From positions 79,906 through 143,905 of the forward strand of contig JAGLUP010000002.1 of the NCBI GenBank assembly GCA_023134715.1: a DNA stretch of 64,000 nucleotides, written 5' to 3'. Source of the stretch: Candidatus Parcubacteria bacterium (GTDB taxonomy: Bacteria > Patescibacteriota > Minisyncoccia > Minisyncoccales > JAGLUP01). Under the pieces are notes generated by a model. That model searched no databases and was not told the DNA's origin. It saw only the letters and a list, made by a program, of their open reading frames with translations. Of this stretch, positions 6,150 to 63,971 are shown one piece after another (the stretch's first letter is position 1; each line of letters begins with the position of its first letter). The position numbers and the translations under genes are program-made.

Positions 6150-6349
6150 GCCTGCCGCAAAAAATCGGGTAAAGCACGAAAGCTTAGCAGGCAAAAGGAA
6201 GGGGGTCCCGCCTACGCTAAAGCTTCGGACGGGCAGGATGGGGGATCCCGCCACGGCGGGATTGCCTACTAAGCTGTCCCGCGAAGCGGGACTAGCGTTT
6301 CCGCTTTCCTGCGATAGCCCCAGTAGCAGAGCGAAGCTTGCTACGGGGC
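6150..6349. repeat. cluster of GC-rich hairpins in AT-rich intergenic DNA
   Basis: GCCTGC(6150-55)/GCAGGC(6187-92); ATCCCGC-CACG-GCGGGAT (6245-62); GTCCCGC-GAA-GCGGGAC (6276-92); GCCCCAGTAGCA...TGCTACGGGGC (6317-49). Confidence 0.7.
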
Positions 6350-6352
6350 GAG

Positions 6353-6764
6353 CAGGAACACAAAACAGAAAAAATTTTCTTTTCATTAAATTAAAAATTA
6401 AAAAATTGCTGGCGAGAAAATAAAATGTGGAAAATTTTTCTGTTTTGTTTCCCGCCGTAGCGGAGCGGAGGCGGTTGCGGAAATGCTTGCCCGAGCGGAG
6501 TCCCCGATTTATCGGGGACGGAGCGAGGATAAAATACCAATCAAAATTCCGCGTCCGGATTTTCGCGAAAAAAAGTTCGGATTTCATTCAAAAGTCCCAG
6601 CATTAAAGGATAACTTAAAAAAATCGCCAAGAAGGCGGTTTTTAAATTTATTATTTTCTCGCCAGTAATTTTTTAATTTTTAATTGGATAACCAGTCGCT
6701 TCGCTCCTTGTAATTGCTTCGCAATTAAGAATAAAAAGAAAATTTTTTCTGTTTTGTGTTCCTG
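6353..6764. repeat. composite inverted-repeat (MITE-like) element carrying GC-rich hairpins and an internal terminator
   Basis: 6353-6379 is the reverse complement of 6738-6764. 6391-6423 is the reverse complement of 6651-6683 (1 mismatch). A further inverted copy of the 25-nt core lies at 6429-6453. Internal hairpins: CCGCC/GGCGG 6452-74 and GTCCCCGAT..ATCGGGGAC 6500-19. CGCC-aagaa-GGCG+T5 at 6624-43. Confidence 0.6.
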
Positions 6765-9146: not shown

Positions 9147-10292
9147 GAACCTTTAGCGTCAAAAATCAGGCCGAAGAGATTAAGGGAATTTGTTGGTCAG
9201 GAACATTTAACAGGGGAAAGGAAACCCCTGAATATTGCTATTAAAAATAAGCACTTGTTTTCGTTTGTCTTTTGGGGACCTCCTGGAGTGGGGAAGACGA
9301 CTTTGGCGAAAATATACGCTAATGCTTTAGACGCCTCTATTTATGAGCTTTCCGCTGTTTCCGCAGGCAAGAATGATATTAGAAAAATAATTGCTGAAGA
9401 TACACAAGGAAAATCTAAGATATTAGTTCTTGATGAAATTCATCGCTTTAATAAAGCTCAACAGGATTTTCTTTTGCCTTTTGTGGAAACTGGCAAAATT
9501 ACTTTAATCGGCGCGACTACAGAGAATCCAAGTTTTGAGATTATTCCTGCTCTGCTTTCGCGATGCCGCATCTTTGTGATGGATGAGCTCACAGATAAAG
9601 AAATGGCTAAAATTATAAAAAGAACTAAGTTTAAATTAGATAAAAAAGCGAAAGATTGGTTGATTGCTATGGCGAACGGCGATGCGCGGCAAGCGATTAC
9701 AATGATAGAAAACACGAATAATTTATACGGAGAAATTACAATAGAAACATTAAAAGATACTCTCCAGTCAAAAGTTTTGCGATATGATAAAAAAGGAGAA
9801 GAACATTACACTGTTATCAGCGCTTTTATTAAAAGTATGAGAGCTGGCCAGCCAGACGCGGCTCTGTATTATTTAGCGAGGATGATAACTTCCGGCGAAG
9901 ACCCTAAATTCATTGCCAGAAGAATGGTTATTTTTGCCAGCGAAGATATCGGACTGGCGCAGCCAACTGCTTTAGTGGTAGCTAATGAAATTTTTCGGGC
10001 AGTGGAAACTATTGGACTTCCGGAATGCGGAATAAATTTAGCTGCCGGAACAGTTTATTTATGTCTTTGTAAAAAAGACAGAAGCGCTTATGAGGGTTAT
10101 TTGGCGGCGATGAAAGACGCAGAGCAATATGGGAATCTACCTGTGCCTTTGGAAATAAGAAACGCTTCAACAAAGCTAATGGAAAATTTGGGTTATGGCG
10201 AGGGATACGAAGCGTATTCAAAAAAAGATTTATTGCCTGAAAAAATAAGAGGAAAGAAATATTTTTCCCGCAAAAAGCCGGAAAATAATTAA
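9144..10292 (+). CDS. rarA: replication-associated recombination protein A (AAA+ ATPase)
   Basis: [22 protein letters not shown]; Walker [10 protein letters not shown]; [13 protein letters not shown]; [12 protein letters not shown]. The track start 9114 reads through the promoter, so ATG 9144 is preferred. Confidence 0.9.
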
Positions 10293-10299
10293 AACAAAA

Positions 10300-10596
10300 A
10301 TGAAAAATGAAAAGAAAAAATATTGGTCGGATAAGGTAACAAAATACAGCAATGCTCTTGATTTAGAGCAAAAAGTTTTTACTTTTAAAAACCCGAAAAA
10401 AATTGCTTTATCTCTTAAGAAATCAGCCGAAGAAAGCGAAAGGAGAAAAGCGAAGCCGTTTCAATCTGCAATGTCTATGTTAAATTTTTACATTAACCGC
10501 GCTGGCAAAAATTTGCCAGAAGAACAAAAAGAAATTTTAGAACAAGCCAAAATTGAATTAAGAAAAGTATTTGAAAAGAAAAATAAATTTAGTTAA
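10300..10596 (+). CDS. DUF3175-like small protein
   Basis: SAMSMLNFYINRAGKNL and AKIELRKVF match my recollection of the DUF3175 family. Confidence 0.55.
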   Translation: MKNEKKKYWSDKVTKYSNALDLEQKVFTFKNPKKIALSLKKSAEESERRKAKPFQSAMSMLNFYINRAGKNLPEEQKEILEQAKIELRKVFEKKNKFS

Positions 10597-14595: not shown

Positions 14596-15426
14596 ATGGG
14601 AAAAAATAAAATAATGTTGGCGGGACCAGGTAATATGGGAACTATGATAGGGCGTAGGATATTGACTGAAAATGGTTTGGAGCTATCTAAGACAGCGTTG
14701 GCTGAAGATAATGGAGGAAAAATGAGATTGGGCCCAGAAGCGAATTTTTTGACTATAAAATTAGCTGGCATGGACTTTCAAAGAAGAGCGATTATAGATG
14801 AAAACCCAGATGTTATTATTGATTTTACGCATCCTGATAGTGTGAACAGAAACGCAGAGCTTTATTGCGAGCTGGGAATACCATTTATTATGGGAACAAC
14901 TGGAGGAGAACGCGGACATCTGAAAGAAACTGTTGAAGAGTCAGACATCTGCGCTGTGATTGCTCCAAATATGGCGCCGCAAATTGTGGCTTTTCAGGCA
15001 ATGATGGAATATGCGGCGAATACTTTCCCAAACGCTTTTAAAGGTTATGGTCTCGTGACAAGAGAAAGTCATCAGGAGCCCAAAAAAGATACCAGTGGAA
15101 CAGCGAAAGCTATGGCGGGTTACTATAATAAGCTTGGGATATCCTTTGAAATAGAGGATATTATAAAGGTGAGGGATCCGGTTGTTCAGAGAATAGAGCT
15201 TGGAGTTCCTGAAGAACATTTAGACGGACATGGGTGGCATAGCTATTATCTTCTTTCTGCCGATGGAAATGTGCGTTTTGAATTTAAGCACAATGTAAAT
15301 GGAAGAGAGATTTATGTAGACGGAGTAATGCTGGCTATTTCTTTTCTGCTATCTAAAATAGAGAAAAATTGCAAGGGAAAGGTTTTCTCTATGATAGATG
15401 TATTGAAAGTAGGACAAAGCCAGTAA
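14596..15426 (+). CDS. dapB: 4-hydroxy-tetrahydrodipicolinate reductase (plant-type DapB-like)
   Basis: GPGNMG nucleotide-binding N-terminus, FIMGTTGG, ESHQEPKKDTSGTAKAM, HNVNGREIY. Confidence 0.7.
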   Translation: MGKNKIMLAGPGNMGTMIGRRILTENGLELSKTALAEDNGGKMRLGPEANFLTIKLAGMDFQRRAIIDENPDVIIDFTHPDSVNRNAELYCELGIPFIMGTTGGERGHLKETVEESDICAVIAPNMAPQIVAFQAMMEYAANTFPNAFKGYGLVTRESHQEPKKDTSGTAKAMAGYYNKLGISFEIEDIIKVRDPVVQRIELGVPEEHLDGHGWHSYYLLSADGNVRFEFKHNVNGREIYVDGVMLAISFLLSKIEKNCKGKVFSMIDVLKVGQSQ

Positions 15427-15440
15427 TGGCAACAAATTTA

Positions 15441-15470
15441 TCTATTGACAGAAGTCAATAGATTTTTTTT
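15441..15470. terminator. terminator between the convergent dapB and purL genes
   Basis: TCTATTGAC-agaa-GTCAATAGA followed by T8. Confidence 0.7.
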
Positions 15471-15486
15471 ACTTAAATTTTTTATT

Positions 15487-18400
15487 TTAATTTTGGTCGC
15501 ACCATTTTCTGGCGTTTTGGAACATTTTTAGCCAAGGGGACGCCTGTAATTCTTTTTTTACCCCGTGAAATTGCTCCGCACCTCCCGGTTTACGGGAGGA
15601 TTTCACAGGGTGAATTCTCTCCGGCATCCATGGCCACTGCCATTTGAGAAAAGTTCGTTCCGGGTGCGGCATCATAGCTAAATGCCTTCCGTCTTCAGAG
15701 CAAAGCGCTGTAATTCCTTGCGCTGACCCGTTTGGATTAAACGGATATTTTTCAGTAGAATCTCCATTATCGTCTACATACGAAATCGGGGTTAATTTTT
15801 GAGCAATAGCATTTTCTAATAATTGATTGTCTGGAAACAATAATCTGCCTTCGCCGTGAGCAATCCAAACGCCTAATACAGAGTCCTGCATATCTTTTAA
15901 CATAATAGCAGGGCTTTGAGAAATTTTTACGGTTGTCCATCGCGATTCAAAGCGTTCAGAATGATTTTTTACAAATTTAGCGGGCACCCATCCCAAAAGG
16001 CCCATTAGCTGACAGCCGTTGCATACGCCTAATGAAAAAGTATTTTTGCGATTATGAAAAGCCGCAAAAATATCTCTAAGTTTGTCATTAAAGCGAATCG
16101 CGCTTGCCCAACCCTTTGCCGAACCAAGCACATCAGCGTAGGAAAATCCGCCGACAAACGCAATGCCGCGGAAATCATCAAGATTAATCTTGTCATTTAA
16201 TAAATCCAACATTGCTACATCCCAGGGCTCAAAACCAGCCATATAAAAAGCGCTGGTCATTTCTCTGTCGCCGTTGCTGCCTTCTTCTCTGATAATAGCA
16301 ATTTTAATTTTTTCGGTTTTCTCTAAAATTTCCTGCGGCGTCTGCTCGGGAGTAAAAGCAATCTTGTATTCAGGATTTTTTCTTTCATATATATTCTTTT
16401 TTTCTTCCATTGCCTGATTTTCTTTTGTTTGCAGTTTATTTAACTGATGACTGGTTTCCTCCCAGACCTGGCGAAGTTCCAGCATACTTTCGTCTAAAAT
16501 TACATTATCTTCAGAAACAATTTTAATCTTTTGGTTTATAGTTGTCTGTCCGATTAAACAAGTTATGTTTTCCAAATTATATTTTTTAATAATTTCTGTA
16601 AATTTTTCCTGAAGAGCCAAATCAACTTCCACAACAAGACCTAACTCCTCATTGAAATAATAGGGGAGTATATTGTCTGAAGACAATTTAACAGAAAGAG
16701 CTGCTCCGCAGTTTCCGGAAAATGCCATCTCAAGAATGGTTGTGATTAAGCCGCCGTCAGACCTGTCATGGCCTGAAAGAATAATTTTTTCATCAATCAT
16801 TTGCTGAATAGCGTAAAATGATTTTTTAAGAACATCTGAATCGTCAACATCAGGAGATTCATTTCCTATTTGTCCTAAACTATGGGCAAGAGCTGAACCT
16901 CCAAGCCGATTTTTATTGTTTCCAATATCAATCAGCCATAGCGCGCTTTTGCCGGGTCTTTTAATATCAGGGGTTATAACTTTATTAATATCAGGCACAT
17001 CAGCATAGGCCGATATAGTTAATTCTATGGGCGATTTTACTATTTCATCGCTTACTTTAGCGGCCATAGATAAGCTGTCTTTGCCGCCATCAACGGCAAT
17101 GCCTAAATCAATCATTATTTTTCTCATAGCGTCAGCGGCATAATATAAATTTGCTCCTTCGCCAGGTAGTTTTGCCGCCAACATCCAATTAGCCGAACAT
17201 TTTATATTGTCCAATTTCTCTATTTTTGCCCAGACAATATTAGTTAAGGCCTCTCCAACAGACATACGAGCGCCTGCTTTAGGATTTACAAGTATTTTTA
17301 TTGGCTGTTCTCCAATGGCTATTGCCGCGCCAGTATTGTGAAAATGGCTTTGCGCTATAACCGCCACATCAGAAACAGTTAGCTGTAAAGGACCGCAGCA
17401 TTGCTGTCTTGCGATAAGTCCTGTTACGCTTCTGTCAACCTTACTTGTAAGAAACCGCTTTGAACCCACAGAAACAAGGCGCAAAACATTTTCCAGCGCT
17501 TGTTTGAAGTTTAATTTTTCCAGCAATTTTAAGCTCTCTAAATTTAAAGTTTGCGTTTGGTCTTTAAATGTTTTTTGCGGCATTTTGCCTAAAATTTTAG
17601 ATAATTCAAGGTTTACTGGAAAAGAATTATCTTTTCTGTCGCGCACAATTATGCGGCCGTCTTCCGTAATCTCTCCTAATTGCTCATACTTTACTCTTTC
17701 TCTTTTACACATTTGAGCAAATTCTTGTATTCTGGAGGGCTTAATAAGCAACCCGTTTCGTTCCTGATATTCAGCGCCCCAAATTTCTAAAACAGACAAT
17801 GTTTCATCTCCAATGTTAATATTTCTTATCTCTATTCTTCCGCCGACCGGCTCAACTAATTCTGTAAGCACATTGCACGGACCGCCAGCCCCTTGGTCGT
17901 GAATGCTTATAATCGGATTATTTGCGCCAAGTTCAACACATGCCCTTACTACTCTGTTCATTTTTTGCTCCATTTCAGCGTCGCCTCGCTGTACCGCGTT
18001 AAAATCAAGCTCTGCTAAATTTTCTCCCTGAATCATACTGGACGCGGCGCTTCCTCCCATGCCTATTCTATAAGCCGGACCGCCAATCTGAATAATGAGC
18101 ATACCTTTTTCAGCCGGTTGTTTTTCTCTATGACATTCATTAATTTGACCAACTCCTCCGGTAAACATTATTGGTTTTAGCCATTCTCTTCTTTCTTTGT
18201 TTGGCAGTTTCATCCCAAAAGAACGGGTAAATCCCTGAATAAGCGGTTCGCCAAATTTGTTTCCATAATCTGAAGCGCCATTGCTCGCTTGTATTTCTAT
18301 GTTTAAAGGGCTTGCCAGATTATCTGGATAAATAAAGTTTTTATCTTCCCACGGCAAATCATATCCCGGAATATTTAAATTGCCCACGCAATATCCCGCG

Positions 18401-19308
18401 GTTCCGGCTACGATTAAAGAGCCCCTGCCTGTCGCTTGTCCATCTCTTATTCTTCCGCCGGTGCCTGTTTCAGCTCCGGGAAAAGGCGCCACGCCTGAAG
18501 GGAAATTATGGGTTTCTGCCGTAAAAGTGATGTCATAATTTAGCTTTTCTTTTTTGAAACCAGACGACTTCCCCGGAATTTTAGGAATAATAGTTATAAT
18601 TTCATTTCCCTTAATAGCGCTTGAATTATCTTTAAAAGCGATAATACTATTTTCCTTATTCGCTTTAATGGGAGCGCGCACTATGTCAAATAACGTTTCA
18701 GGCATTTCCTTTTTATCTATAATCAGCTTGCCGTTAAAAAACCAATGCCGGGAATGTTCGCTGTTTGCTTGTCCAAGCTGAAAACATTCAACATTGGTCG
18801 GGTTTCTTTTTAAATCTTTTGTAAATAAATCATAATAAAATTTTTCATCCCATTCGTCCATCCCTAAACCCATTTCTTTGTTAATCTTTTTAATCGCGGA
18901 AATGCCGTCTTTTAGCAAAGGTATTGTGTGAACTTGCTCTGGCTTAAGAGCTGTTTTAAAACTTTCAAGAGGTTTCGGATAATGGCACTCGGTCATTCTG
19001 TCATGTTCGCAAGAGGTTGCGTATCTTCTGGATTTTTCAATCCTCAAAACATTTTTTAATCCTGCGGCGCGGCAAATAGAAACAGCATTGGTTGAGAATG
19101 CTGTCGCAAAATTTAGACGCGGACCTATTTCAATTATCTTTTTATTTTCAATGTCAAAAAACGATTTGGTTTTTATGCTGTCTGCCAAAAATCCATCCGC
19201 TAAAATTTGTTTTAAAATAAGCTCCTGGCTCTGCGTAAGCTTTTCTGAAACTTCAACATTAAAACAATATTCTAATTCGTCTGAAATTTTATGATAAAAA
19301 TGATACAT
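15487..19308 (-). CDS. purL: phosphoribosylformylglycinamidine synthase, single-chain large form
   Basis: 1273 aa. FGAM synthase motifs (ETHNFPSGVAPFPGAETGTGGRIRD) and a C-terminal glutamine amidotransferase domain (GVCNGCQ, MMPHPER). Confidence 0.95.
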   Translation of the reverse strand: MYHFYHKISDELEYCFNVEVSEKLTQSQELILKQILADGFLADSIKTKSFFDIENKKIIEIGPRLNFATAFSTNAVSICRAAGLKNVLRIEKSRRYATSCEHDRMTECHYPKPLESFKTALKPEQVHTIPLLKDGISAIKKINKEMGLGMDEWDEKFYYDLFTKDLKRNPTNVECFQLGQANSEHSRHWFFNGKLIIDKKEMPETLFDIVRAPIKANKENSIIAFKDNSSAIKGNEIITIIPKIPGKSSGFKKEKLNYDITFTAETHNFPSGVAPFPGAETGTGGRIRDGQATGRGSLIVAGTAGYCVGNLNIPGYDLPWEDKNFIYPDNLASPLNIEIQASNGASDYGNKFGEPLIQGFTRSFGMKLPNKERREWLKPIMFTGGVGQINECHREKQPAEKGMLIIQIGGPAYRIGMGGSAASSMIQGENLAELDFNAVQRGDAEMEQKMNRVVRACVELGANNPIISIHDQGAGGPCNVLTELVEPVGGRIEIRNINIGDETLSVLEIWGAEYQERNGLLIKPSRIQEFAQMCKRERVKYEQLGEITEDGRIIVRDRKDNSFPVNLELSKILGKMPQKTFKDQTQTLNLESLKLLEKLNFKQALENVLRLVSVGSKRFLTSKVDRSVTGLIARQQCCGPLQLTVSDVAVIAQSHFHNTGAAIAIGEQPIKILVNPKAGARMSVGEALTNIVWAKIEKLDNIKCSANWMLAAKLPGEGANLYYAADAMRKIMIDLGIAVDGGKDSLSMAAKVSDEIVKSPIELTISAYADVPDINKVITPDIKRPGKSALWLIDIGNNKNRLGGSALAHSLGQIGNESPDVDDSDVLKKSFYAIQQMIDEKIILSGHDRSDGGLITTILEMAFSGNCGAALSVKLSSDNILPYYFNEELGLVVEVDLALQEKFTEIIKKYNLENITCLIGQTTINQKIKIVSEDNVILDESMLELRQVWEETSHQLNKLQTKENQAMEEKKNIYERKNPEYKIAFTPEQTPQEILEKTEKIKIAIIREEGSNGDREMTSAFYMAGFEPWDVAMLDLLNDKINLDDFRGIAFVGGFSYADVLGSAKGWASAIRFNDKLRDIFAAFHNRKNTFSLGVCNGCQLMGLLGWVPAKFVKNHSERFESRWTTVKISQSPAIMLKDMQDSVLGVWIAHGEGRLLFPDNQLLENAIAQKLTPISYVDDNGDSTEKYPFNPNGSAQGITALCSEDGRHLAMMPHPERTFLKWQWPWMPERIHPVKSSRKPGGAEQFHGVKKELQASPWLKMFQNARKWCDQN
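15561..15612. repeat. GC-rich nested palindrome inside the purL coding sequence
   Basis: CCCCGTGAAA...TTTCACAGGG (9/10 bp) enclosing CCTCCCG-gttta-CGGGAGG; encodes HPVKSSRKPGGAEQFHG. Confidence 0.7.
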
Positions 19309-20317
19309 ACTTATTACCTTTAATTACTTCTCCTATGAGAATCGCTTCCTTTATGTCATCGCTTGAAATAACCATTAAGCCGATACCGCAATTAAATGTT
19401 TTTAACATTTCCTGAATGGAAATATTTCCTTTTTCTTGAATATATTTAAATATCGGATTAACAGGCCACGAACCGAGCTTGATATTTATAGCGCAGCCTT
19501 CCGGCAATACGCGGGGAGGGTTTTCAATAATGCCGCCGCCAGTTATATGTACCATTCCGGCAATTTCATACTTTGAAAGCAAAGATTTAATTTGCTTAAC
19601 ATATATAGTAGTCGGCTCAAGCAGTTCTTGTCCCAAGGTTTTTCCCAAGAAAGAATGTTCTTCATCAAGTATTTTCCTTGCTTTCTCAGGGTCGTTAATA
19701 TCTATGCCAAATACTTTTCTAACCAAGCTATAGCCGTTGGAATGAACTCCGGAAGAGGGGAGTCCAAACACTTTCATTCCCGGCTTGATGTTTTTTCCTA
19801 AAATAAGAGCTTGTTTTGAATCCGCAAATCCAACCGCGAATCCAGCAAGGTCGTAATCATTGTCTTTGTACATTCCCGGCATTTCAGCCATTTCGCCGCC
19901 GAGAAGGGCTGTTTCAGCTCTTTCGCAGCCCTCTATGATGCCATTTACTATTAATGACGTTCTTTCAGGGATTTGTCTGCCCATAGCGATATAATCTAAA
20001 AAAATAGCAGGCGTTATCCCTGCTACAATAAGGTCGTTGACGCACATCGCGACCAAATCAATGCCTACTGTATCGTGTTTCTCCATAATAATAGAGAGCA
20101 TAAGCTTTGTGCCGACTCCGTCTGTGCTTGTTCCCATAACTCTTTTGTCAGGAAGCTCAACCACACCGCTAAATCCGCCTATTCCGGAAAGGATTTTTCC
20201 ATTATAATGTCTGAAGGTTTTTTGAGCTCTGTCTTTTATAAGCTCAACCGCTTTATTTCCCGCTTCTATGTCCACTCCACTATCGGAATAAGTTGTTTGT
20301 TTTTTGTTGTTAGCCAT
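19289..20317 (-). CDS. purM: phosphoribosylformylglycinamidine cyclo-ligase (AIR synthetase)
   Basis: YSDSGVDIEAGN, GIGGFSG, DGVGTK motifs; overlaps the purL start by 20 nt. Confidence 0.9.
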   Translation of the reverse strand: MANNKKQTTYSDSGVDIEAGNKAVELIKDRAQKTFRHYNGKILSGIGGFSGVVELPDKRVMGTSTDGVGTKLMLSIIMEKHDTVGIDLVAMCVNDLIVAGITPAIFLDYIAMGRQIPERTSLIVNGIIEGCERAETALLGGEMAEMPGMYKDNDYDLAGFAVGFADSKQALILGKNIKPGMKVFGLPSSGVHSNGYSLVRKVFGIDINDPEKARKILDEEHSFLGKTLGQELLEPTTIYVKQIKSLLSKYEIAGMVHITGGGIIENPPRVLPEGCAINIKLGSWPVNPIFKYIQEKGNISIQEMLKTFNCGIGLMVISSDDIKEAILIGEVIKGNKYVSFLS

Positions 20318-37627: not shown

Positions 37628-39088
37628 ATGGATAAAATGATAAACTTAAGAATACATCACTTTTATGATATCCTTCGTAGTTTTGGACAGAATAAAAAAA
37701 TAAAACCTCATCCTCATTTACATTCATTTCATAAGGTGGCGGAATTAGTTCGTCATAATCCTAATTTAAAAATAAAAATCACTATAAGTTGCGATAGCAT
37801 TTGCGAAAACTGTATACATTATAAAAATGGAACTTGTGATGATTTGATAACTCATAGAAAAGATTTTAGCTCAAAAGAAGCATTAAATAATTATATTGAC
37901 AAACGAATAATGAAAAAATGTTTATTAAAAAAAGGCGATATATTAACAGTCCGTCAATTATGTGAGAAAGCAGAATTATATTTAGATAACATAGAATTTA
38001 TTTATTCAGGCAATGACTTAGGGCATACAAAAAAACGAAAAAATAATGTCATTGATGGATTGAAATATTACAATAAAATTATGGTTAAAAATAAAAAGAA
38101 AGAAAAATTGAATAAAGGGGAAATAATTATTTATAAAACTTCTCAAAAAGAGATTGAACTAAGGGTGCGGTTGGAAAAAGAGACAATATGGCTTGATGCG
38201 CATCAAATGGCACAGGTTTTTAATATTGACAGAACTGTTATAGTCAAGCATATAGGAAATATTTACAAATCAAAAGAATTAAGAAAAAAATCAACCTGTG
38301 TAAAAATTGCACAGGTTGCTGCGGACGGTAAAATCCGGCAAATGAATTTGTATAATCTAGATATGGTAATTTCTGTTGGCTACCGTATAAATTCGCAAAG
38401 AGCAACGCAATTTAGAATTTGGGCAACCAGAATTTTAAAACAGCATATTTTACAGGGCTATACTATAAATGAAAAAAGATTATTGGAAGCGCGAAATAAA
38501 TTTAATCAATTACGGGAAATAATTAATTTTTTACAGCAAAAATCAAAAGCAAAATTATTGCATGGACAGGAAAAAGAGATTTTAAATTTACTCGCTAATT
38601 ATTCAAAAACACTTACTCTTTTAGAACAATACGATAAAAGCAAACTTGAAACCGTTCGCGGTAAAAAATCAAAATTTATTTTAGAATATGATAAATGCTT
38701 AGAAATTATTGTCAAAATTAAAAAAGAATTGGTTGATAAAAAAGAAGCTGGAGAACTCTTTGGCAGCGAGGTCTCCCATAAACTTGAAAGTGTGGCTAAA
38801 AACCTCTATCAAACCTTTGATAGTAAAGAACTTTATAAAACAATTGAAGAAAAAGCAGCGAATTTACTTTACCTAATTATCAAAGACCATCCTTTTGTTG
38901 ACGGCAATAAACGGATTGGTTCATTTTTGTTTGTTTATTTCTTAGATAAAAATAATTATTTATATCGCGAGACAGGAGAAAAGAAAATAAATGACAACGC
39001 TCTGACAGCTTTGGCTCTTTTGATAGCTCAAAGCGAACCAAGAGAAAAAGATCAAATGATCGCGCTGATTACCCAATTATTAAAATAA
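37628..39088 (+). CDS. DUF1284-like / RhuM / Fic-DOC fusion protein
   Basis: LRIHHFYDILRSFG..CDSICENCIHYKNGTC; RhuM core NLYNLDMVISVGYRINSQRATQFRIWAT; Fic/DOC motif HPFVDGNKRIGS. Confidence 0.65.
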   Translation: MDKMINLRIHHFYDILRSFGQNKKIKPHPHLHSFHKVAELVRHNPNLKIKITISCDSICENCIHYKNGTCDDLITHRKDFSSKEALNNYIDKRIMKKCLLKKGDILTVRQLCEKAELYLDNIEFIYSGNDLGHTKKRKNNVIDGLKYYNKIMVKNKKKEKLNKGEIIIYKTSQKEIELRVRLEKETIWLDAHQMAQVFNIDRTVIVKHIGNIYKSKELRKKSTCVKIAQVAADGKIRQMNLYNLDMVISVGYRINSQRATQFRIWATRILKQHILQGYTINEKRLLEARNKFNQLREIINFLQQKSKAKLLHGQEKEILNLLANYSKTLTLLEQYDKSKLETVRGKKSKFILEYDKCLEIIVKIKKELVDKKEAGELFGSEVSHKLESVAKNLYQTFDSKELYKTIEEKAANLLYLIIKDHPFVDGNKRIGSFLFVYFLDKNNYLYRETGEKKINDNALTALALLIAQSEPREKDQMIALITQLLK

Positions 39089-44511: not shown

Positions 44512-45261
44512 ATGAAATCTGTTATTCAATTAAAAAAAGAGTTAAAAAAAATATCCAGTCCTGAGCAGGCGAAAATTTCTGAACGGTTTTGTAAAACTGG
44601 AAAAGGCGAATATGCTGAAGGAGAAATTTTCCTGGGAATTAAGGTTCCAGACCAAAGAAAAATTTCCAGCAATTATCAAAATCTTTCTTTAAAAGAAATA
44701 GGCCGGCTGCTTGATAGTAAAATCCATGAATATCGCCTTACTGCTTTATTTATTCTGATTAAAAAATATGAAAAAGCAGATGCTCAAGAAAAAAAGAAAA
44801 TCTTTGATTTTTATTTAAAACAAACTAAAAATATAAATAACTGGGGTTTAGTGGATATTTCCGCTCCAAAAATTGTCGGAGATTATCTTTTAGATAATCC
44901 TCGCGATGTTTTATATAAACTCGCAAAATCCCCGCCCAAGGCGGGTCCCCGACGAGTCGGGGAAAAAAATCTGTGGGAGAAAAGAATCGCGATAATAGCG
45001 TGTTTTACTTTTATAAAAAATAATGATTTTAAGGACGCATTAAAAATCTCTAAAATACTTATTAAAGATGAACACGATTTAATTCATAAAGCAGTTGGCT
45101 GGATGCTGAGGGAAGTTGGAAAAAGAAACCAACAAATAGAAGAAGAATTTTTAAAAAAACACTGCAAGCAAATGCCGAGAGTTATGTTGAGATACTCTAT
45201 TGAAAAATTTGATGAAGACAAAAGAAAATTTTATATGAAGTTTTCCACTGGTAAATTATAA
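44512..45261 (+). CDS. DNA alkylation repair protein (AlkD/AlkC-type HEAT-like repeat glycosylase family)
   Basis: HEYRLTALFILI, NNWGLVDISAPKIVGDYL, LWEKRIAIIA, IHKAVGWMLREVGK. Confidence 0.75.
   Translation: MKSVIQLKKELKKISSPEQAKISERFCKTGKGEYAEGEIFLGIKVPDQRKISSNYQNLSLKEIGRLLDSKIHEYRLTALFILIKKYEKADAQEKKKIFDFYLKQTKNINNWGLVDISAPKIVGDYLLDNPRDVLYKLAKSPPKAGPRRVGEKNLWEKRIAIIACFTFIKNNDFKDALKISKILIKDEHDLIHKAVGWMLREVGKRNQQIEEEFLKKHCKQMPRVMLRYSIEKFDEDKRKFYMKFSTGKL
44931..44963. repeat. 33-nt GC-rich tandem double hairpin, in frame inside the alkD-like gene
   Basis: CCCGCC-caa-GGCGGG then TCCCCGAC-ga-GTCGGGGA; 11 codons; falls within SPPKAGPRRVGEKN. Confidence 0.75.
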
Positions 45262-51938: not shown

Positions 51939-52124
51939 CAGCTCTTTGAAACAAAAAAATAACCCGTCAAAAGTCCTTCGGGCAATTAGGCGGGCAAAAA
52001 AGAAAGAGAAACCCGCCTTTGTTTAAACTTCGGCGAGGCAAGGCATTCTCCTGCTGATTGAGGTTCTAATTTTTGGACCCCAGCCAGCAGGAGAATGATA
52101 TTTTATCCCTGCGAGGTGAAAAAG
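51939..52124 (+). promoter_or_regulatory. conserved structured leader, cassette A
   Basis: 74 nt identical to 52655-52728. CTCCTGCTG (52048-56) pairs with CAGCAGGAG (52085-93) and GGTTC/GGACC lies inside. SD GAGGTG. Confidence 0.6.
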
Positions 52125-52654: not shown

Positions 52655-52866
52655 CAGCTCTTTGAAACAAAAAAATAACCCGTCAAAAGTCCTTCGGGCA
52701 ATTAGGCGGGCAAAAAAGAAAGAGAAACAACCGAGAAGCCATCCCGGTAGACATTTCTGTAGATTGTTCTCCTGCTGATTGAGGTTCTAAATGTAACGAG
52801 AACTGTTCTCGTTACATTGGACCCCAGCCAGCAGGAGGATAATATTATTCCTGCGAGGTGAAAAAG
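52655..52866 (+). promoter_or_regulatory. conserved structured leader, cassette B
   Basis: Same blocks as A. The GGTTC/GGACC helix carries an extra 12-bp perfect hairpin (52791-52817). Confidence 0.6.
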
Positions 52867-58537: not shown

Positions 58538-58573
58538 CGTAACAAATCTCGCCGATCGGCGAGATTTGTTATG
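58538..58573 (+). terminator. long palindromic hairpin, copy 1
   Basis: AACAAATCTCGCCGATCGGCGAGATTTGTT is perfect (58541-70), followed by TTTTG. Confidence 0.65.
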
Positions 58574-59657: not shown

Positions 59658-59672
59658 TATGCTAATTTAAAT

Positions 59673-59710
59673 CCGTAACAAATCAGGTCGATCGACCTGA
59701 TTTGTTACGG
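59673..59710 (+). terminator. long palindromic hairpin, copy 2
   Basis: CCGTAACAAATCAGGTCGATCGACCTGATTTGTTACGG, 38 nt, perfect. Confidence 0.65.
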
Positions 59711-59730
59711 TTTGATTAAAGAGTTTTTAT

Positions 59731-60977: not shown

Positions 60978-63971
60978 ATGCCTCAACTGAAAAAACTTAA
61001 TCCAGAGCAGGAGAAGGCCGTTAAATGGAAAGACGGGCCGGTTTTGATTATTGCCGGCGCTGGAACCGGAAAAACCACAGCACTGACCCGCAGAATAGCT
61101 TGGCTTATAGAGCAAAAAATAGCTAAACCAGAAGAAATACTTGGCTTAACCTTTACAGAGAAAGCCGCGGAAGAAATGGATAATAGAGTTAATCAGCTTT
61201 TACCTATCGGATACAGCGAGTTATGGATATCTACTTTTCATTCTTTTTGCGACAGAATCCTCAAGCAACACGGCCTGGACATAGGGCTTTCAACTGACTT
61301 TAAAGTATTAGATGATGTGCAGTCCTGGCTTTTATTCAGGCAGAACTTATCTCAATTTAATTTAGATTATTACCGCCCTCTGGGCAATCCAACAAAATTT
61401 ATCCGTGTTTTGCTTAACCATTTCTCCAGATGCAAAGATGAAGAAATATGTCCCGAGGATTATCTGAAATACAGCGATGATTTACGGCTTAATATGGACG
61501 AGATAGCAGTGGGAAGCAAGGCCATAAAAAGTAAAGACAAAAAAGAAATAGCTCAAATCCAGCAGGAAGCAGACAGAATAAAAGAGGTGGCTGAGGCATA
61601 TTTTCTTTATCAAAAACTTTTATTAGACAATAATTCTTTGGATTTCGGAGACCTTATTAATTATTGTTTAAAATTATTTAAAACAAGGCCAAAAATTTTA
61701 GAAAAATACCGAAAACAGTTTAAATATATTTTAGTAGATGAATTTCAGGACACTAATTGGGCGCAATATGAATTAGTAAAATTATTGGCCTTTCCCAAAA
61801 ATAATTTAGCTGTCTCGGCAGATGATGACCAATCTCTCTATCTCTGGAGGGGAAGTTCTTTTAATAATGTCCTGCGGTTTAGGAAAGATTTTCCAGATAC
61901 CAAAGAAATAATTTTAATTAGAAATTATCGCTCTCCTCAAAATATACTGGATTTATCATATAAATTTATTCAACTGAATAATCCTAATCGTCTGGAATAT
62001 CAGCTTAATGAGGCAGGAAAAATCAATAAAAAACTGATTGCTTGTGAAAAAGACAAAGGTGTTATTGAAGTTCTTTGCTTTAAGACATTGGAACAAGAAG
62101 CAAGGGGAGTGGTAGAAAAAATAGCTCAGATTTTAAAACAAGATAAAGAAGCAAATTTTAATGATTTTGCTATTTTAGTAAGAGCTAATAATAATGCTCA
62201 ACCATTCTGCAAGGAATTAGAAAGAAATGGTTTTCCTTACCAATTTTTGGCCTCAAAAGGCCTGTATTCTAAACCAGTAATTCTGGATATTATTTCATAT
62301 TTAAAACTTTTAAATAACTGCTATGAAAATTCAGCTTTTTATCGGGTACTGAACTGTCCTTGTTTTAAAATTTCTTCAGAAGAGATAGCTAAAATTACCC
62401 AACACAGCCATCGCAAAGGACAATCTATTTATGAGACACTTCAGCAAATTCCCTTAAGTTCTGAACTTAATTTTCTTTTAGGGCTGATTAAAAAACATAG
62501 AGCTGAAGTTAAGAAAAAAAATATTAGTGAAATTTTTGTGCTTTTTTTGAAAGAATCAGGATATTTAAAAAAACTTGTAAAAAAAGAAAAAGAAACAGAG
62601 CTTAATTTAATAAACCAATTTTACAATAAAATTAAAAAATTTGAACAATCCCAAGCTGACCCGATTTTAAATAGTTTTATAGAACAGCTTAATTTAGAGC
62701 TGGAATCGGGAGAACAGGGCTCCTTAGAAATTGACGCTCAGGAAGGGCCTGATATGATAAAAATCCTTACTATTCATAAAGCCAAGGGACTGGAATTTAA
62801 ATATGTTTTTTTGGTTAATTTAGTAGATAAACGTTTTCCTTCTTTAGAAAGGAAAGAACCAATTGAAATTCCAGAAAAACTAATAAAAGAGATAATCCCG
62901 GAAGGAGATATTCACTTGCAAGAAGAAAGAAGATTGTTTTATGTTGGAATGACCAGAGCTAAAAAGGGATTGTTTTTTGCTTGGGCTGATGATTATGGAG
63001 GAAATAGGAAGAAGAAGCCGTCACGGTTTTTAATAGAGTGCGGTTTAGAGAAAGATGGAAAAGAAATAAAAGAAACTTTAATGCATGAAATCCACTCAGC
63101 CCAAACCCGCCACAACTTCGCAGATGTTGGCGGGAGCGTTGCGGGCAAGAATTCAAAAAAATCTTTGATTCCTTCTTATTTTTCTTACAGCCAAATAGCT
63201 GCTTTTCAAAAATGTCCCCTTCAATATAAATTTGCTCATATTTTAAAAATCCCGAGGCAGGGCTCTGCCGCTTTCAGTTTTGGAAGAACAATGCATCAAA
63301 CTTTGTATGAATTTTTAAAAACAATTCAACAAGGAGCTGACGCCAGACAGGCAAGCATTTTCCCAGACACAAATGAGCCAAAATCTTCAGAAGAAAAAAC
63401 TTGTTTAAATTTTCAAAACTTATTAGAGATTTATAAAAAGAATTGGATTGATGAATGGTATGAGAACAAACCGCAAAAAGAAAAATACTTTAAACAAGGG
63501 AAAAAATCTCTTAAAATTTTTTATAATGATTTTTTAAAAAATCAGCCGAACATTCAGATTATAAACAAAAAACCAGCTCTGGAGCAAAGTTTTAATCTTA
63601 AAATAGGGGATTGGTCTTTAATAGGAAAAATAGACAGAATAGACGCTCTTTCAAATAAAAATAAAGTGGAAATTATAGATTATAAAACAGGGAAAGCTAA
63701 AGATAAATTAAAACCAGAGGAAAAACAACAGCTCTTAATCTATCAAATAGCAACTGAAGAATCTTTGGGATTAAATCCTGTTAAACTCACTTATTATTAC
63801 TTGGAAAACTGCAAGACCATTTCTTTTTTAAGCAGTGAAAAAGAAAAACAAAATTTTAAAGAAAAATTATTAGAATTACTCAACAAAATTAAAAATAGCG
63901 ATTTTAAACCAACTCCCGGTTGGAATTGTAGATTTTGCGATTTTAAGGACATCTGCGAATATAAGCAGTAA
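60978..63971 (+). CDS. UvrD/PcrA-type helicase with a C-terminal Cas4/AddB-like PD-(D/E)xK nuclease
   Basis: LNPEQEKAV, AGAGTGKTT, VDEFQDTN, VGMTRAK; C-terminal CPLQYKF.., IDRID..IIDYKTGK, CRFCDFKDIC. ATG 60978 preferred over TTG 60951. Confidence 0.85.
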   Translation: MPQLKKLNPEQEKAVKWKDGPVLIIAGAGTGKTTALTRRIAWLIEQKIAKPEEILGLTFTEKAAEEMDNRVNQLLPIGYSELWISTFHSFCDRILKQHGLDIGLSTDFKVLDDVQSWLLFRQNLSQFNLDYYRPLGNPTKFIRVLLNHFSRCKDEEICPEDYLKYSDDLRLNMDEIAVGSKAIKSKDKKEIAQIQQEADRIKEVAEAYFLYQKLLLDNNSLDFGDLINYCLKLFKTRPKILEKYRKQFKYILVDEFQDTNWAQYELVKLLAFPKNNLAVSADDDQSLYLWRGSSFNNVLRFRKDFPDTKEIILIRNYRSPQNILDLSYKFIQLNNPNRLEYQLNEAGKINKKLIACEKDKGVIEVLCFKTLEQEARGVVEKIAQILKQDKEANFNDFAILVRANNNAQPFCKELERNGFPYQFLASKGLYSKPVILDIISYLKLLNNCYENSAFYRVLNCPCFKISSEEIAKITQHSHRKGQSIYETLQQIPLSSELNFLLGLIKKHRAEVKKKNISEIFVLFLKESGYLKKLVKKEKETELNLINQFYNKIKKFEQSQADPILNSFIEQLNLELESGEQGSLEIDAQEGPDMIKILTIHKAKGLEFKYVFLVNLVDKRFPSLERKEPIEIPEKLIKEIIPEGDIHLQEERRLFYVGMTRAKKGLFFAWADDYGGNRKKKPSRFLIECGLEKDGKEIKETLMHEIHSAQTRHNFADVGGSVAGKNSKKSLIPSYFSYSQIAAFQKCPLQYKFAHILKIPRQGSAAFSFGRTMHQTLYEFLKTIQQGADARQASIFPDTNEPKSSEEKTCLNFQNLLEIYKKNWIDEWYENKPQKEKYFKQGKKSLKIFYNDFLKNQPNIQIINKKPALEQSFNLKIGDWSLIGKIDRIDALSNKNKVEIIDYKTGKAKDKLKPEEKQQLLIYQIATEESLGLNPVKLTYYYLENCKTISFLSSEKEKQNFKEKLLELLNKIKNSDFKPTPGWNCRFCDFKDICEYKQ
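63099..63146. repeat. GC-rich nested palindrome inside the helicase-nuclease linker
   Basis: GCCC(63099-102)/GGGC(63143-46) enclosing CCCGCC(63106-11)/GGCGGG(63129-34); lies within the stretch SAQTRHNFADVGGSVAGKN. Confidence 0.55.

Follow-up and report, generated by a model that had tools for sequence, protein, structure and literature searches.

A small dispersed palindromic repeat as an in-frame insertion close to the 3' end of purL in a Parcubacteria bacterium

The palindrome near the 3' end of purL in a Candidatus Parcubacteria bacterium is probably a copy of a small, non-autonomous mobile palindromic repeat, which was inserted in frame in an ancestor and has been tolerated as a surface loop of the protein. 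The host is a tiny groundwater-type bacterium of the Parcubacteria (CPR), and the window analysed is a stretch of 64 kb (64,000 nucleotides) of its DNA. The gene purL (15487..19308, minus strand; from the ORF list and translation) encodes a large single-chain FGAM synthase of 1273 amino acids, and purM (19289-20317, minus strand) lies just upstream. The translated PurL is 100% identical to P0001 (phosphoribosylformylglycinamidine synthase, Candidatus Parcubacteria bacterium), matches PDB PurL structures and contains the GVCNGCQ and HPE catalytic motifs. The gene looks functional and under purifying selection.

The insertion comprises 54 nt (15561..15614, minus strand) that are missing from the closest insert-free relative, as placed by MAFFT in an alignment with L002-L004; its boundary can slide by 1-2 nt because a T is shared at both ends. 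With slashes marking the junctions, the filled site reads GAGAGAA/TTCACC...CACGGGG/TAAAAAAAG and the empty site in this alignment (P0003, 85% amino acid identity) reads GAAAAAA/TGAAAAAAG. In translation, 18 codons are inserted (HPVKSSRKPGGAEQFHGV; 15559..15612, minus strand), corresponding to PurL residues 1233-1250. Among the 120 best PurL homologues, the spacing between HPER and SPW is 19-21 residues in 116 and 26 in two, and a spacing of 38 residues is found only in P0001, the PurL of the window, and in P0002. Besides the PurL of the window, one relative in this set, 89% identical, bears the insert. A different insertion of 6 amino acids is present at the same loop in P0111 and P0118. In an AlphaFold model of the C-terminal 279 amino acids of PurL, the sole segment with a pLDDT <50 consists of fragment residues 237-259 (protein residues 1231-1253). 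The insert falls inside this segment, between a helix and the C-terminal helix, and is predicted by the model to be the only disordered stretch of the C-terminal domain.

The original prediction had described a nested GC-rich palindrome in frame near the PurL C-terminus, adding about 20 residues. The sequence and coordinates of this palindrome were recovered as described, with the enclosed CCTCCCG-gttta-CGGGAGG at 15581-15599 on the plus strand, and the insertion is indeed lineage-specific and frame-preserving, being present in frame in two of the 120 best homologues. The extra residues hold up with close relatives, rather than E. coli PurL, as the reference and are not conserved across diverse PurL sequences, 118 of the 120 homologues being without the insert, but their number is 18 rather than about 20. 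The expected lack of some 50-60 nt in relatives appears as one clean 54-nt gap in the 85% identical relative. Encoding of the residues without palindromic symmetry was also looked for, and the sole relative that shares them keeps the palindrome intact. The structural model proposed for the tail places the insert at a pLDDT below 50. A large dispersed repeat family, a third hairpin and in-frame copies in other proteins go beyond the original prediction.

The complete element, as delimited by the family model R1, is 58 nt long (15557..15614, minus strand) and consists of a 50-nt core between two 4-nt flanks, reading TTCA-core-TAAA on the mRNA strand. The 5' arm (CCCTGTGAAAT on the mRNA strand, ATTTCACAGGG on the plus strand; 15600..15610, minus strand) was located by an inverted-repeat search, and the 3' arm (ATTTCACGGGG on the mRNA strand, CCCCGTGAAAT on the plus strand; 15561..15571, minus strand) by the same search and by folding. 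The arms pair over 11 bp, with 10 Watson-Crick pairs and one G.T(U) pair, and are terminal inverted repeats. Between them lie inner hairpin 1, which reads CCTCCCG-TAAAC-CGGGAGG on the mRNA strand (15581..15599, minus strand; inverted-repeat search and fold), and inner hairpin 2, which reads TGC-GGA-GCA on the mRNA strand and has a 3-bp stem and a GNA-type triloop (15572..15580, minus strand; DNA fold). Once hairpin 2 is counted in, the whole purL element makes up a perfect three-way junction. Folding of its 58 nt as single-stranded DNA gives this structure with an MFE of -19.2 kcal/mol (z = -6.4, with 0 of 200 shuffles as good), and both DNA strands of the 58-mer, as well as the copy at L001, fold into a three-way junction without unpaired junction nucleotides. 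As RNA in a 101-nt context, the element has a z-score of -3.0. L005, L063 and 30 metagenome loci have a TGC-NNN-GCA hairpin at the equivalent position. A search of the 64-kb window for the 19-nt inner palindrome at <=3 mismatches gave no second match (0 of 100 shuffles matched).

The element is a member of a dispersed, multi-copy repeat family. The covariance model R1 was built only from copies in other genomes, with the window copy excluded, and it matches the purL copy with 39.4 bits (E = 1.2e-8), the sole significant match in the 64-kb window (next best E = 0.04), and the L001 copy with 37.6 bits; nothing further was significant in the window or in L002-L004. A pattern consisting of the arms alone (CCCTGTGAAAT...ATTTCACRGGG) was scanned over species-representative genomes and matched at more than 119 loci, compared with about 4 expected by chance (estimated for uniform base composition). 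The matches listed are mainly from Patescibacteria, Bacteroidota and Cloacimonadota, possibly with more phyla. Arm invariance in the pattern scan is by construction; the 5' arm was recovered independently by a scan for the purL-type subfamily, with variation at position 4 only. The interiors have a mean MFE z-score of -1.7 and contain one or two hairpins in 108 of 120 among the matches listed. Covariation is also present in the hairpin stems, with 72 cells changed on both sides versus 24.6 in shuffles, and stem partners are paired in 94% versus about 40% after sliding of the partners. Up to 4 copies lie within 13.6 kb (L149), and about 1 kb of L147 contains 3. Near-identical copies occur in the same genome, and the purL-type subfamily is present at about 17 distinct metagenome sites. 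About 90% of the copies among the matches listed are intergenic and about 5-10% are intragenic. No Rfam 15 family was found at the gathering threshold in the window and 19 copy-bearing loci, with only chance-level hits in E-value mode, and no description of the repeat family was found in the literature by sequence word or topic.

Insertion in frame has recurred in unrelated enzymes, namely TatD, a Mur ligase, a DegT aminotransferase, radical-SAM enzymes, GH127, a family-2 glycosyltransferase and Wzt ABC ATPases. The TatD copy is an insertion relative to 1yix, and the DegT copy corresponds to 21 extra amino acids relative to 7b0m; a second insertion in the L091 aminotransferase is not palindromic. 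The peptide PVK...QFHGV is common to PurL, the Wzt ATPases, a membrane protein and a radical-SAM enzyme, and the peptide P[RCS]EI...ISQG is found in TatD, the Mur ligase, DegT, a methylthiotransferase-type radical-SAM enzyme, GH127 and GT2. The Wzt ABC ATPase L138 carries TPVKSAKGGAKQFHGV, which is almost the PurL peptide, and PVK...FHGV is present at the same loop in at least 20 of the 120 homologues of this ATPase. An ATPase that is 97% identical retains just 8 nt of the element. This loss indicates that the element is dispensable, and so does the PurL model, in which no segment other than that of the insert has low confidence. An unbiased test of frames of >=80 codons that enter and leave an element found the same frame kept in 6 of 6 loci, and none of the 47 copies whose length is not a multiple of three (3n) splits a gene. 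Since 62% of all copies are 3n, this test of frame preservation has little power, and the observation that all intragenic copies are 3n is likewise weakened as proof of translation.

In all three cases measured against homologues (PurL, DegT and TatD), the inserted unit equals the core plus 4 nt. At purL, the flanking 4-mers are TTCA and TAAA, and the empty site has TGAA. Among the matches listed, 25 of 121 copies have the same 4-mer on both flanks, and no unambiguous target-site duplication was seen at purL or across these 121 copies. All-against-all clustering of 1338 ORFs from 119 loci revealed no recurrent transposase near the copies; the recurrent clusters were histidine kinases, MacB/FtsX transporters, sigma-54 activators and ribosomal operon genes. 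No family copies were found in viral contigs, phage records or plasmids. The window contains only one copy, as do 24 kb of the relative, so that activity in this genome is at most putative.

In the proposed explanation, the mobile unit would be an element of about 40-70 nt in which invariant 11-nt inverted arms enclose one or two short hairpins, whose stems may vary between copies yet stay paired. A copy would have entered purL in the ancestor that this Parcubacteria lineage shares with the 89% identical relative. The insertion would have survived because the inserted unit (50-nt core plus 4 nt, 54 nt in total) is a multiple of three, because the element is free of stop codons in the frame used here and because the landing site is a linker that joins the final two helices of the glutaminase domain. 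After such a survivable landing, the element would simply be translated into a disordered surface loop of 18 residues, and it would be selfish or neutral for the host. The hairpin tips show strand polarity (GAA 16 vs TTC 1) and often read GCGAAGC, which is known as a very stable DNA mini-hairpin. This polarity suggests a single-stranded DNA form, and the element may move in such a folded form, with an enzyme encoded at another locus recognising it in trans.

The three-way junction could instead be a cis-acting structure kept by the host, such as a site that stabilises the mRNA or directs its processing, a pause in translation close to the end of purL or a DNA site for a conserved binding protein, with the coding insert as a by-product, but this is considered unlikely. 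The two insert-bearing purL lineages differ at 33% of their four-fold degenerate sites, and their inserts are identical at 50 of 54 positions. One of the four substitutions lies in the stems, which cover 42 nt (p about 0.04, binomial estimate), and this sparing of the stems hints at structural constraint and would fit a retained structure. In hairpin 1 of L001, a single C->T substitution leaves a G.U pair on the sense strand, and the non-Watson-Crick pairs in the outer stem and in L001 hairpin 1 are both G.U on the mRNA strand, which points in the same direction. Excess conservation of the insert is not significant, since its 92.6% identity is matched or exceeded by 15% of the 54-nt windows of the gene; the identity of four-fold sites, 8 of 9 in the insert versus 67% gene-wide (p about 0.15, estimate), is not significant either. 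The polarity of the hairpin tips also agrees with a cis-acting structure, as do arms that are invariant across several phyla; such invariance would not usually be expected of a purely selfish repeat and may point to a host factor or function. Family copies are also found at the same position upstream of rpsL, in its 5' leader, in three Patescibacteria (CPR) genomes; this shared position and the shared Wzt loop could result from hotspot insertion or from retained function. However, the element upstream of rpsL is in the opposite sense, and therefore the mismatch is C.A in the rpsL mRNA. In addition, copies lie 5' of, 3' of and inside genes without strong bias (81 flanking 3' ends vs 60 5' ends), both orientations occur in coding regions, there is no Rfam match and no T-run for termination, and the 97% identical ATPase and the great majority of PurL homologues exist without the element.

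It is very unlikely that PurL gained the 18 residues as an adaptation, such as a new loop for interactions, with the palindrome being incidental. The retention of the insert in two lineages as divergent as these would be in line with an adaptive role, as would the tolerance of a different 6-aa insertion at the same loop in P0111 and P0118. On the other hand, the insert is predicted to be disordered, and three of the four nucleotide changes between the lineages are non-synonymous. The same peptide is also found in an unrelated ABC ATPase, a membrane protein and a radical-SAM enzyme, which indicates a passenger sequence rather than a PurL-specific function.

Even less probable is an untranslated element, removed from the mRNA in an intron-like manner, perhaps through an endonuclease of the bulge-helix-bulge type, or bypassed by the ribosome, as is known for phage T4 gene 60. 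A compact, stable hairpin structure lies exactly at the insertion boundaries, and a TFIIB-like ORF on the contig of the relative briefly suggested an archaeal host. The context is nevertheless bacterial (DnaB, DnaX and sigma-70), and the fold is a three-way junction, not a bulge-helix-bulge, and on these two grounds an archaeal-type intron was rejected. The insert is moreover in frame and free of stops, no Rfam intron matches, and the frame test points, weakly, in the same direction. Hardly any credence is given to a local accident (template switching or hairpin-primed repair making the palindrome in situ) or an assembly artefact without any repeat family, for which the single copy in the window could speak, as it is refuted by the presence of the insert, with 4 substitutions, in the independent assembly L001 and also on metagenome contig L127, and by the family match (E = 1e-8) of a model that excludes the window copy, unless these loci share one read set.

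Two further candidates were rejected. A CRISPR repeat or spacer remnant does not agree with one or two matches per locus and the lack of regularly spaced arrays. An intrinsic terminator of the convergent gene was rejected because the element has no T-run and a separate palindrome with A/T runs (15440-15463) is present between purL and the convergent gene.

Beyond the mobile repeat in purL, the copies may together form an undescribed cross-phylum family of ultra-small three-way-junction mobile elements, which would occupy intergenic regions and enzyme surface loops in Patescibacteria, Bacteroidota and Cloacimonadota, move as single-stranded DNA with the help of a trans-acting enzyme and repeatedly create short disordered loops, as at a single loop of the Wzt ABC ATPases of many lineages; this is proposed tentatively, at slightly less than an even chance. 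The members would be about 40-70 nt long, with invariant 11-nt arms and freely varying inner hairpins tipped by GCGAAGC-type loops, a description that is held with the same reserve.

To our knowledge, Rickettsia is the only textbook case of 'selfish' palindromes that lie in frame within protein genes. Rickettsia palindromic elements (RPEs) are about 100-150 bp long, known only from Rickettsia and, in some RPE families, nearly half intragenic. They are dispersed, occur in frame in unrelated housekeeping genes, are translated and have no linked transposase (PMC10969869). Both groups are dispersed palindromic repeats that lie in frame in unrelated genes and encode a conserved peptide tolerated by the fold, both have intergenic copies as well, and neither has a linked transposase. 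Unlike RPEs, the purL family measures 54-69 nt as inserted, forms a three-way junction with invariant 11-nt arms, is found in several phyla and has only about 5-10% of its copies inside genes; it is set apart from RPEs by description, not by consensus sequences. Similar to MITEs, the family has terminal inverted repeats, is non-coding and multi-copy, and has subfamilies that are homogeneous within a genome. However, typical MITEs are considerably longer. No parent insertion sequence sharing the ends of the purL family turned up near the 119 loci, the target-site duplication of the family is ambiguous and its interior is conserved as structure, not as sequence.

The family also resembles REP/REPIN sequences (RAYT, Y1/HUH) and IS200/IS605-derived hairpins, as it consists of short, mostly extragenic, GC-rich hairpins whose tip polarity suggests single-stranded DNA, the form on which HUH enzymes act. 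In contrast to these, its consensus has no GTAG-type head, and no copy-flanked RAYT or TnpA gene was found in the 119 loci (8-kb flanks). REPs are species-specific, whereas the arms of the purL family are common to several phyla, without marked bias to gene 3' ends. Fungal mitochondrial double-hairpin elements and GC clusters are tiny mobile sequences with two adjacent hairpins, GC-rich in an AT-rich genome, which are intergenic but also occur in frame in coding or rRNA variable regions. These elements are organellar and unrelated in sequence to the purL family, so that the resemblance is an analogy only.

For the biology of mobile elements, the family poses the question of which factor recognises 11-bp arms that have the same sequence in different phyla, without a visible link to a transposase, phage or plasmid. 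RPE-like behaviour would now be present in the CPR (Patescibacteria) and other uncultivated lineages, arising from a much smaller and distinctive element. In annotation, the extra PVK...FHGV and PxEI...ISQG loops of predicted proteins would be passenger sequences rather than family features. In terms of protein evolution, the element would be a recurrent source of new surface loops.

The 54-nt palindromic insertion in purL (window 15559-15612, minus strand, 18 codons) is genuine and in frame, as the original prediction held. The gene (15487-19308, minus strand) is a 1273-codon ORF for a large single-chain PurL that is 100% identical to the NCBI phosphoribosylformylglycinamidine synthase of a Candidatus Parcubacteria bacterium, and purM is located immediately upstream. 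In 116 of the best 120 PurL homologues, the catalytic HPER and the conserved SPW are 19-21 residues apart, and in two the spacing is 26; a spacing of 38 is only found in the PurL of the window and in P0002, which is 89% identical. The suggestion that relatives might lack about 50-60 nt is borne out by the nearest relative without the insert, P0003 (85% identical, three independent contigs), whose gene lacks exactly 54 nt, seen as one clean gap in the DNA alignment. The filled site reads GAGAGAA/TTCACC...CACGGGG/TAAAAAAAG in the window, versus GAAAAAA/TGAAAAAAG at the empty site of P0003. The copy in the P0002 gene (contig L001) differs at four of the 54 positions and has the same fold. An assembly artefact is ruled out by this second filled copy and by the recurrence of the L001 version on metagenome contig L127.

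Near the 3' end of purL, in a window with only 33% G+C, the mRNA strand of the element reads TTCA CCCTGTGAAAT CCTCCCG-TAAAC-CGGGAGG TGC-GGA-GCA ATTTCACGGGG TAAA. The outer arms, 11 nt each, are paired, including one G.T(U) pair. The inner palindrome described originally equals the first hairpin, whereas the adjacent 9 nt, left unexplained at that point, form a second hairpin of 3 bp. With DNA parameters, the 58-mer folds into a perfect three-way junction on both strands (MFE -19.2 and -17.4 kcal/mol by strand, z of about -6, none of 200 shuffles as good). Folded as RNA within 101 nt of sequence, it has a z of -3.0. A terminator role is unnecessary, since another palindrome, ATCTATTGAC-agaa-GTCAATAGAT at 15440-15463, flanked by A/T runs between the convergent purL and ORF 14596-15426, looks like a bidirectional terminator.

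The glutaminase motifs GVCNGCQ and HPE are intact. Between the two insert-bearing purL lineages, 89% of the amino acids are identical versus only 67% of the four-fold degenerate sites, which indicates that purL is under purifying selection, as judged from these substitutions. The C-terminal 279 residues were modelled with AlphaFold from a 39-sequence alignment (mean pLDDT 84.6). The sole segment with a pLDDT below 50 contains the insert (fragment residues 237-259, protein 1231-1253) and is positioned between a helix and the C-terminal helix. Alignments with solved PurL structures end at the insert. The linker loop is evidently permissive. A different 6-residue insertion of the RVGSNGSS type is present in the same linker of the homologues P0111 and P0118, from which it follows that this loop tolerates length changes.

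The window has no second copy of the element, nor do the loci of the relatives. A scan of GTDB representatives (one genome per species) using the arms alone, CCCTGTGAAAT-N15-45-ATTTCACRGGG, resulted in at least 119 loci, versus about 4 by chance according to our own estimate with uniform base composition. By record title, many of the matches listed are from Bacteroidota (Rikenellaceae, Saprospiraceae, Bacteroidales), Cloacimonadota and Patescibacteria (Parcu-, Kaiser-, Zambryski-, Moranii- and Saccharibacteria), and one contig each is labelled Gammaproteobacteria, Ignavibacteria, Anaerolineales, Bdellovibrionales, Spirochaetales and Thermodesulfobacteriota. Bacteroidota, Cloacimonadota and Patescibacteria, with several genomes each, are the only secure phyla, because the assignment of short metagenome-bin contigs can be wrong. 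The interiors are non-random: of the distinct ones among the matches listed, 108 of 120 contain one or two hairpins (mean z of -1.7 versus shuffles). From the most frequent 50-nt class, 23 of the 28 sequences were selected for having nine or more of the 11 inner pairs; in this set, both hairpin stems stay paired while the sequence varies, with 72 cells changed on both sides versus 24.6 in shuffles, and 94% of the stem cells paired versus about 40% with partners slid. A covariance model built from these 23 foreign copies provides an independent test of family membership for the purL element, which is the only significant match in the 64-kb window (39.4 bits, E about 1e-8). The L001 copy scores 37.6 bits, and no match to this model was obtained in the insert-free relatives. 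A simple hairpin at 38290-38320, ACCTGTGTAA-aaa-TTGCACAGGT, has a stem like the family arms, and its weak model match (E = 0.04) is probably due to chance.

The purL-type subfamily, in which the second hairpin is TGC-NNN-GCA, was found at 30 metagenome loci (about 17 distinct sites). Copy-rich loci contain, by the model, up to four copies in 13.6 kb (L149) and three in about 1 kb (L147), and copies inside one genome are almost identical, as expected after bursts of spread. One L149 copy (10251-10308, in a B12-binding radical-SAM gene) has the arms CCCAGTTAAAT/ATTTAACAGGG, with a compensatory G-C to T-A change in the otherwise invariant arm. Tandem arrays with 4-nt linkers also occur; that at L107 2534-2718 has at least three 63-nt units (59-nt core plus CTGG linker) and reads through as QPREIIQHKALQQPGKPISRG repeats in an ORF without a Pfam match.

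Among the matches listed, about 90% of the copies are outside long open frames, and the flanking gene ends (81 3' versus 60 5') have no strong bias. In-frame copies are present in a TatD hydrolase, as an insertion when compared with E. coli YcfH (PDB 1yix), and in a DegT aminotransferase (L091), which has 21 residues more than 7b0m. Further examples are a Mur ligase, a methylthiotransferase-type radical-SAM enzyme, a GH127 glycosidase and a membrane protein. The subfamily scan added a Wzt-type ABC ATPase, a family-2 glycosyltransferase, a B12-binding radical-SAM enzyme and a second membrane protein. Compared with PDB 7b0m, the DegT protein also contains another insertion, of about 40 residues (L091 1219-1338), encoded by non-palindromic DNA (z = -0.8). 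Comparison with homologues gave the length of the insert in three cases, each time the core (50, 59 or 56 nt) plus 4 nt. The element is open in two reading frames, resulting in the peptides P[RCS]EI...ISQG or PVK...(Q/E)FHGV, and the peptide of the ABC ATPase at L138, TPVKSAKGGAKQFHGV, nearly equals that of PurL, HPVKSSRKPGGAEQFHGV. Inserts of the PVK...FHGV type occupy the same loop in at least 20 of 120 homologues of this ATPase; in five of these, the DNA contains intact family members whose inner hairpins differ and whose first codons are slightly shifted in position. In L154 (P0121, 97% identical to the L138 protein), the element is partially deleted in frame: of its 3' arm only the final 8 nt, TCACGGGG, are left, and these encode NHGV. 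The homologue P0139 has two element-type peptides in tandem in this loop, VYPVKSSRADAKHLTGGRIYPVKSGESGAKLFHHGV, and in L155 the element is shifted downstream by 21 nt with respect to the conserved KGKV.

Most likely, a small non-autonomous mobile palindrome inserted into purL; selection would have retained only a copy with the frame kept, no stop codons and a tolerant linker, and the insert would now be translated as a disordered loop. The hairpin tips have a strand polarity (GAA 16 times versus TTC once), and 12 of 46 are GCGAAGC, an exceptionally stable DNA mini-hairpin. Together with an interior conserved in structure rather than sequence, these features suggest that the element may move as single-stranded DNA recognised in trans, comparable to REP/RAYT or IS200/IS605 systems. 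Against a simple assignment to these systems, no such enzyme is recurrent near the 119 loci among the matches listed, where the 4-mers on either side form identical direct repeats at no more than 25 of 121 copies.

There are signs, none of them decisive, that something beyond selfish spread may play a part. These are that the arms are invariant across phyla among the matches listed, that 62% of all copies listed have a 3n length although most are intergenic, and that only one of the four changes between the two purL copies is within the 42 stem positions, that one being G.U-compatible. Of the 54-nt windows of purL, 15% match or exceed the overall 50/54 identity of the insert. In addition, three different Patescibacteria (CPR) genomes have a copy just upstream of the rpsL-rpsG-fusA operon, in the gap separating rpsL from an M50 peptidase gene (L037 2469-2526, L063 6445-6488 and L068 5822-5871). 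The element is oppositely oriented in the rpsL leader, and a role as sense-strand RNA is therefore not a general one. The L063 copy is preceded by a promoter-like TTGACC-17-TAAATT and followed by a hairpin with a T-run that resembles a terminator.

Several other features were observed. Two copies of a different imperfect palindrome (52044-52097 and 52763-52843), TTCTCCTGCTGATTGAGGT ... ACCCCAGCCAGCAGGAG, both have CCTGCGAGGTG after them, with a short ORF in addition behind the first; they may represent a structured leader that is repeated or a further repeat family. Two perfect palindromes (58540-58571 and 59670-59713; arms of 16 and 22 nt) share TAACAAATC...GATTTGTTA. Short G+C-rich patches are present, for example at 6226-6498, 44923-44962 and 63106-63145, and the 64-kb window contains no tRNA genes and no Rfam family at gathering score. 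Contig L001 encodes a 462-aa ORF with Pfam Zn_Ribbon_TF and TFIIB (18613-20001) in an otherwise bacterial context (DnaB, DnaX).

Rickettsia palindromic elements behave as mobile palindromes that are tolerated in frame and translated in proteins (PMC10969869). The purL element works similarly, being frame-preserving, tolerated and most likely translated as a loop, and differs from them in size (54 nt versus 100-150 bp) and host. It has inverted ends like a MITE but is far shorter, with no clear target duplication and no parent element found, and unlike REP sequences it has no REP head and no RAYT linkage. The element matched no family in Rfam 15 and was absent from viral, phage and plasmid collections. 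No description of the family turned up in the literature, whether searched by sequence or by topic, although one may still exist. The in-frame palindromic insertion in purL is thus real and explained, and the family behind it is the interesting part of the finding.
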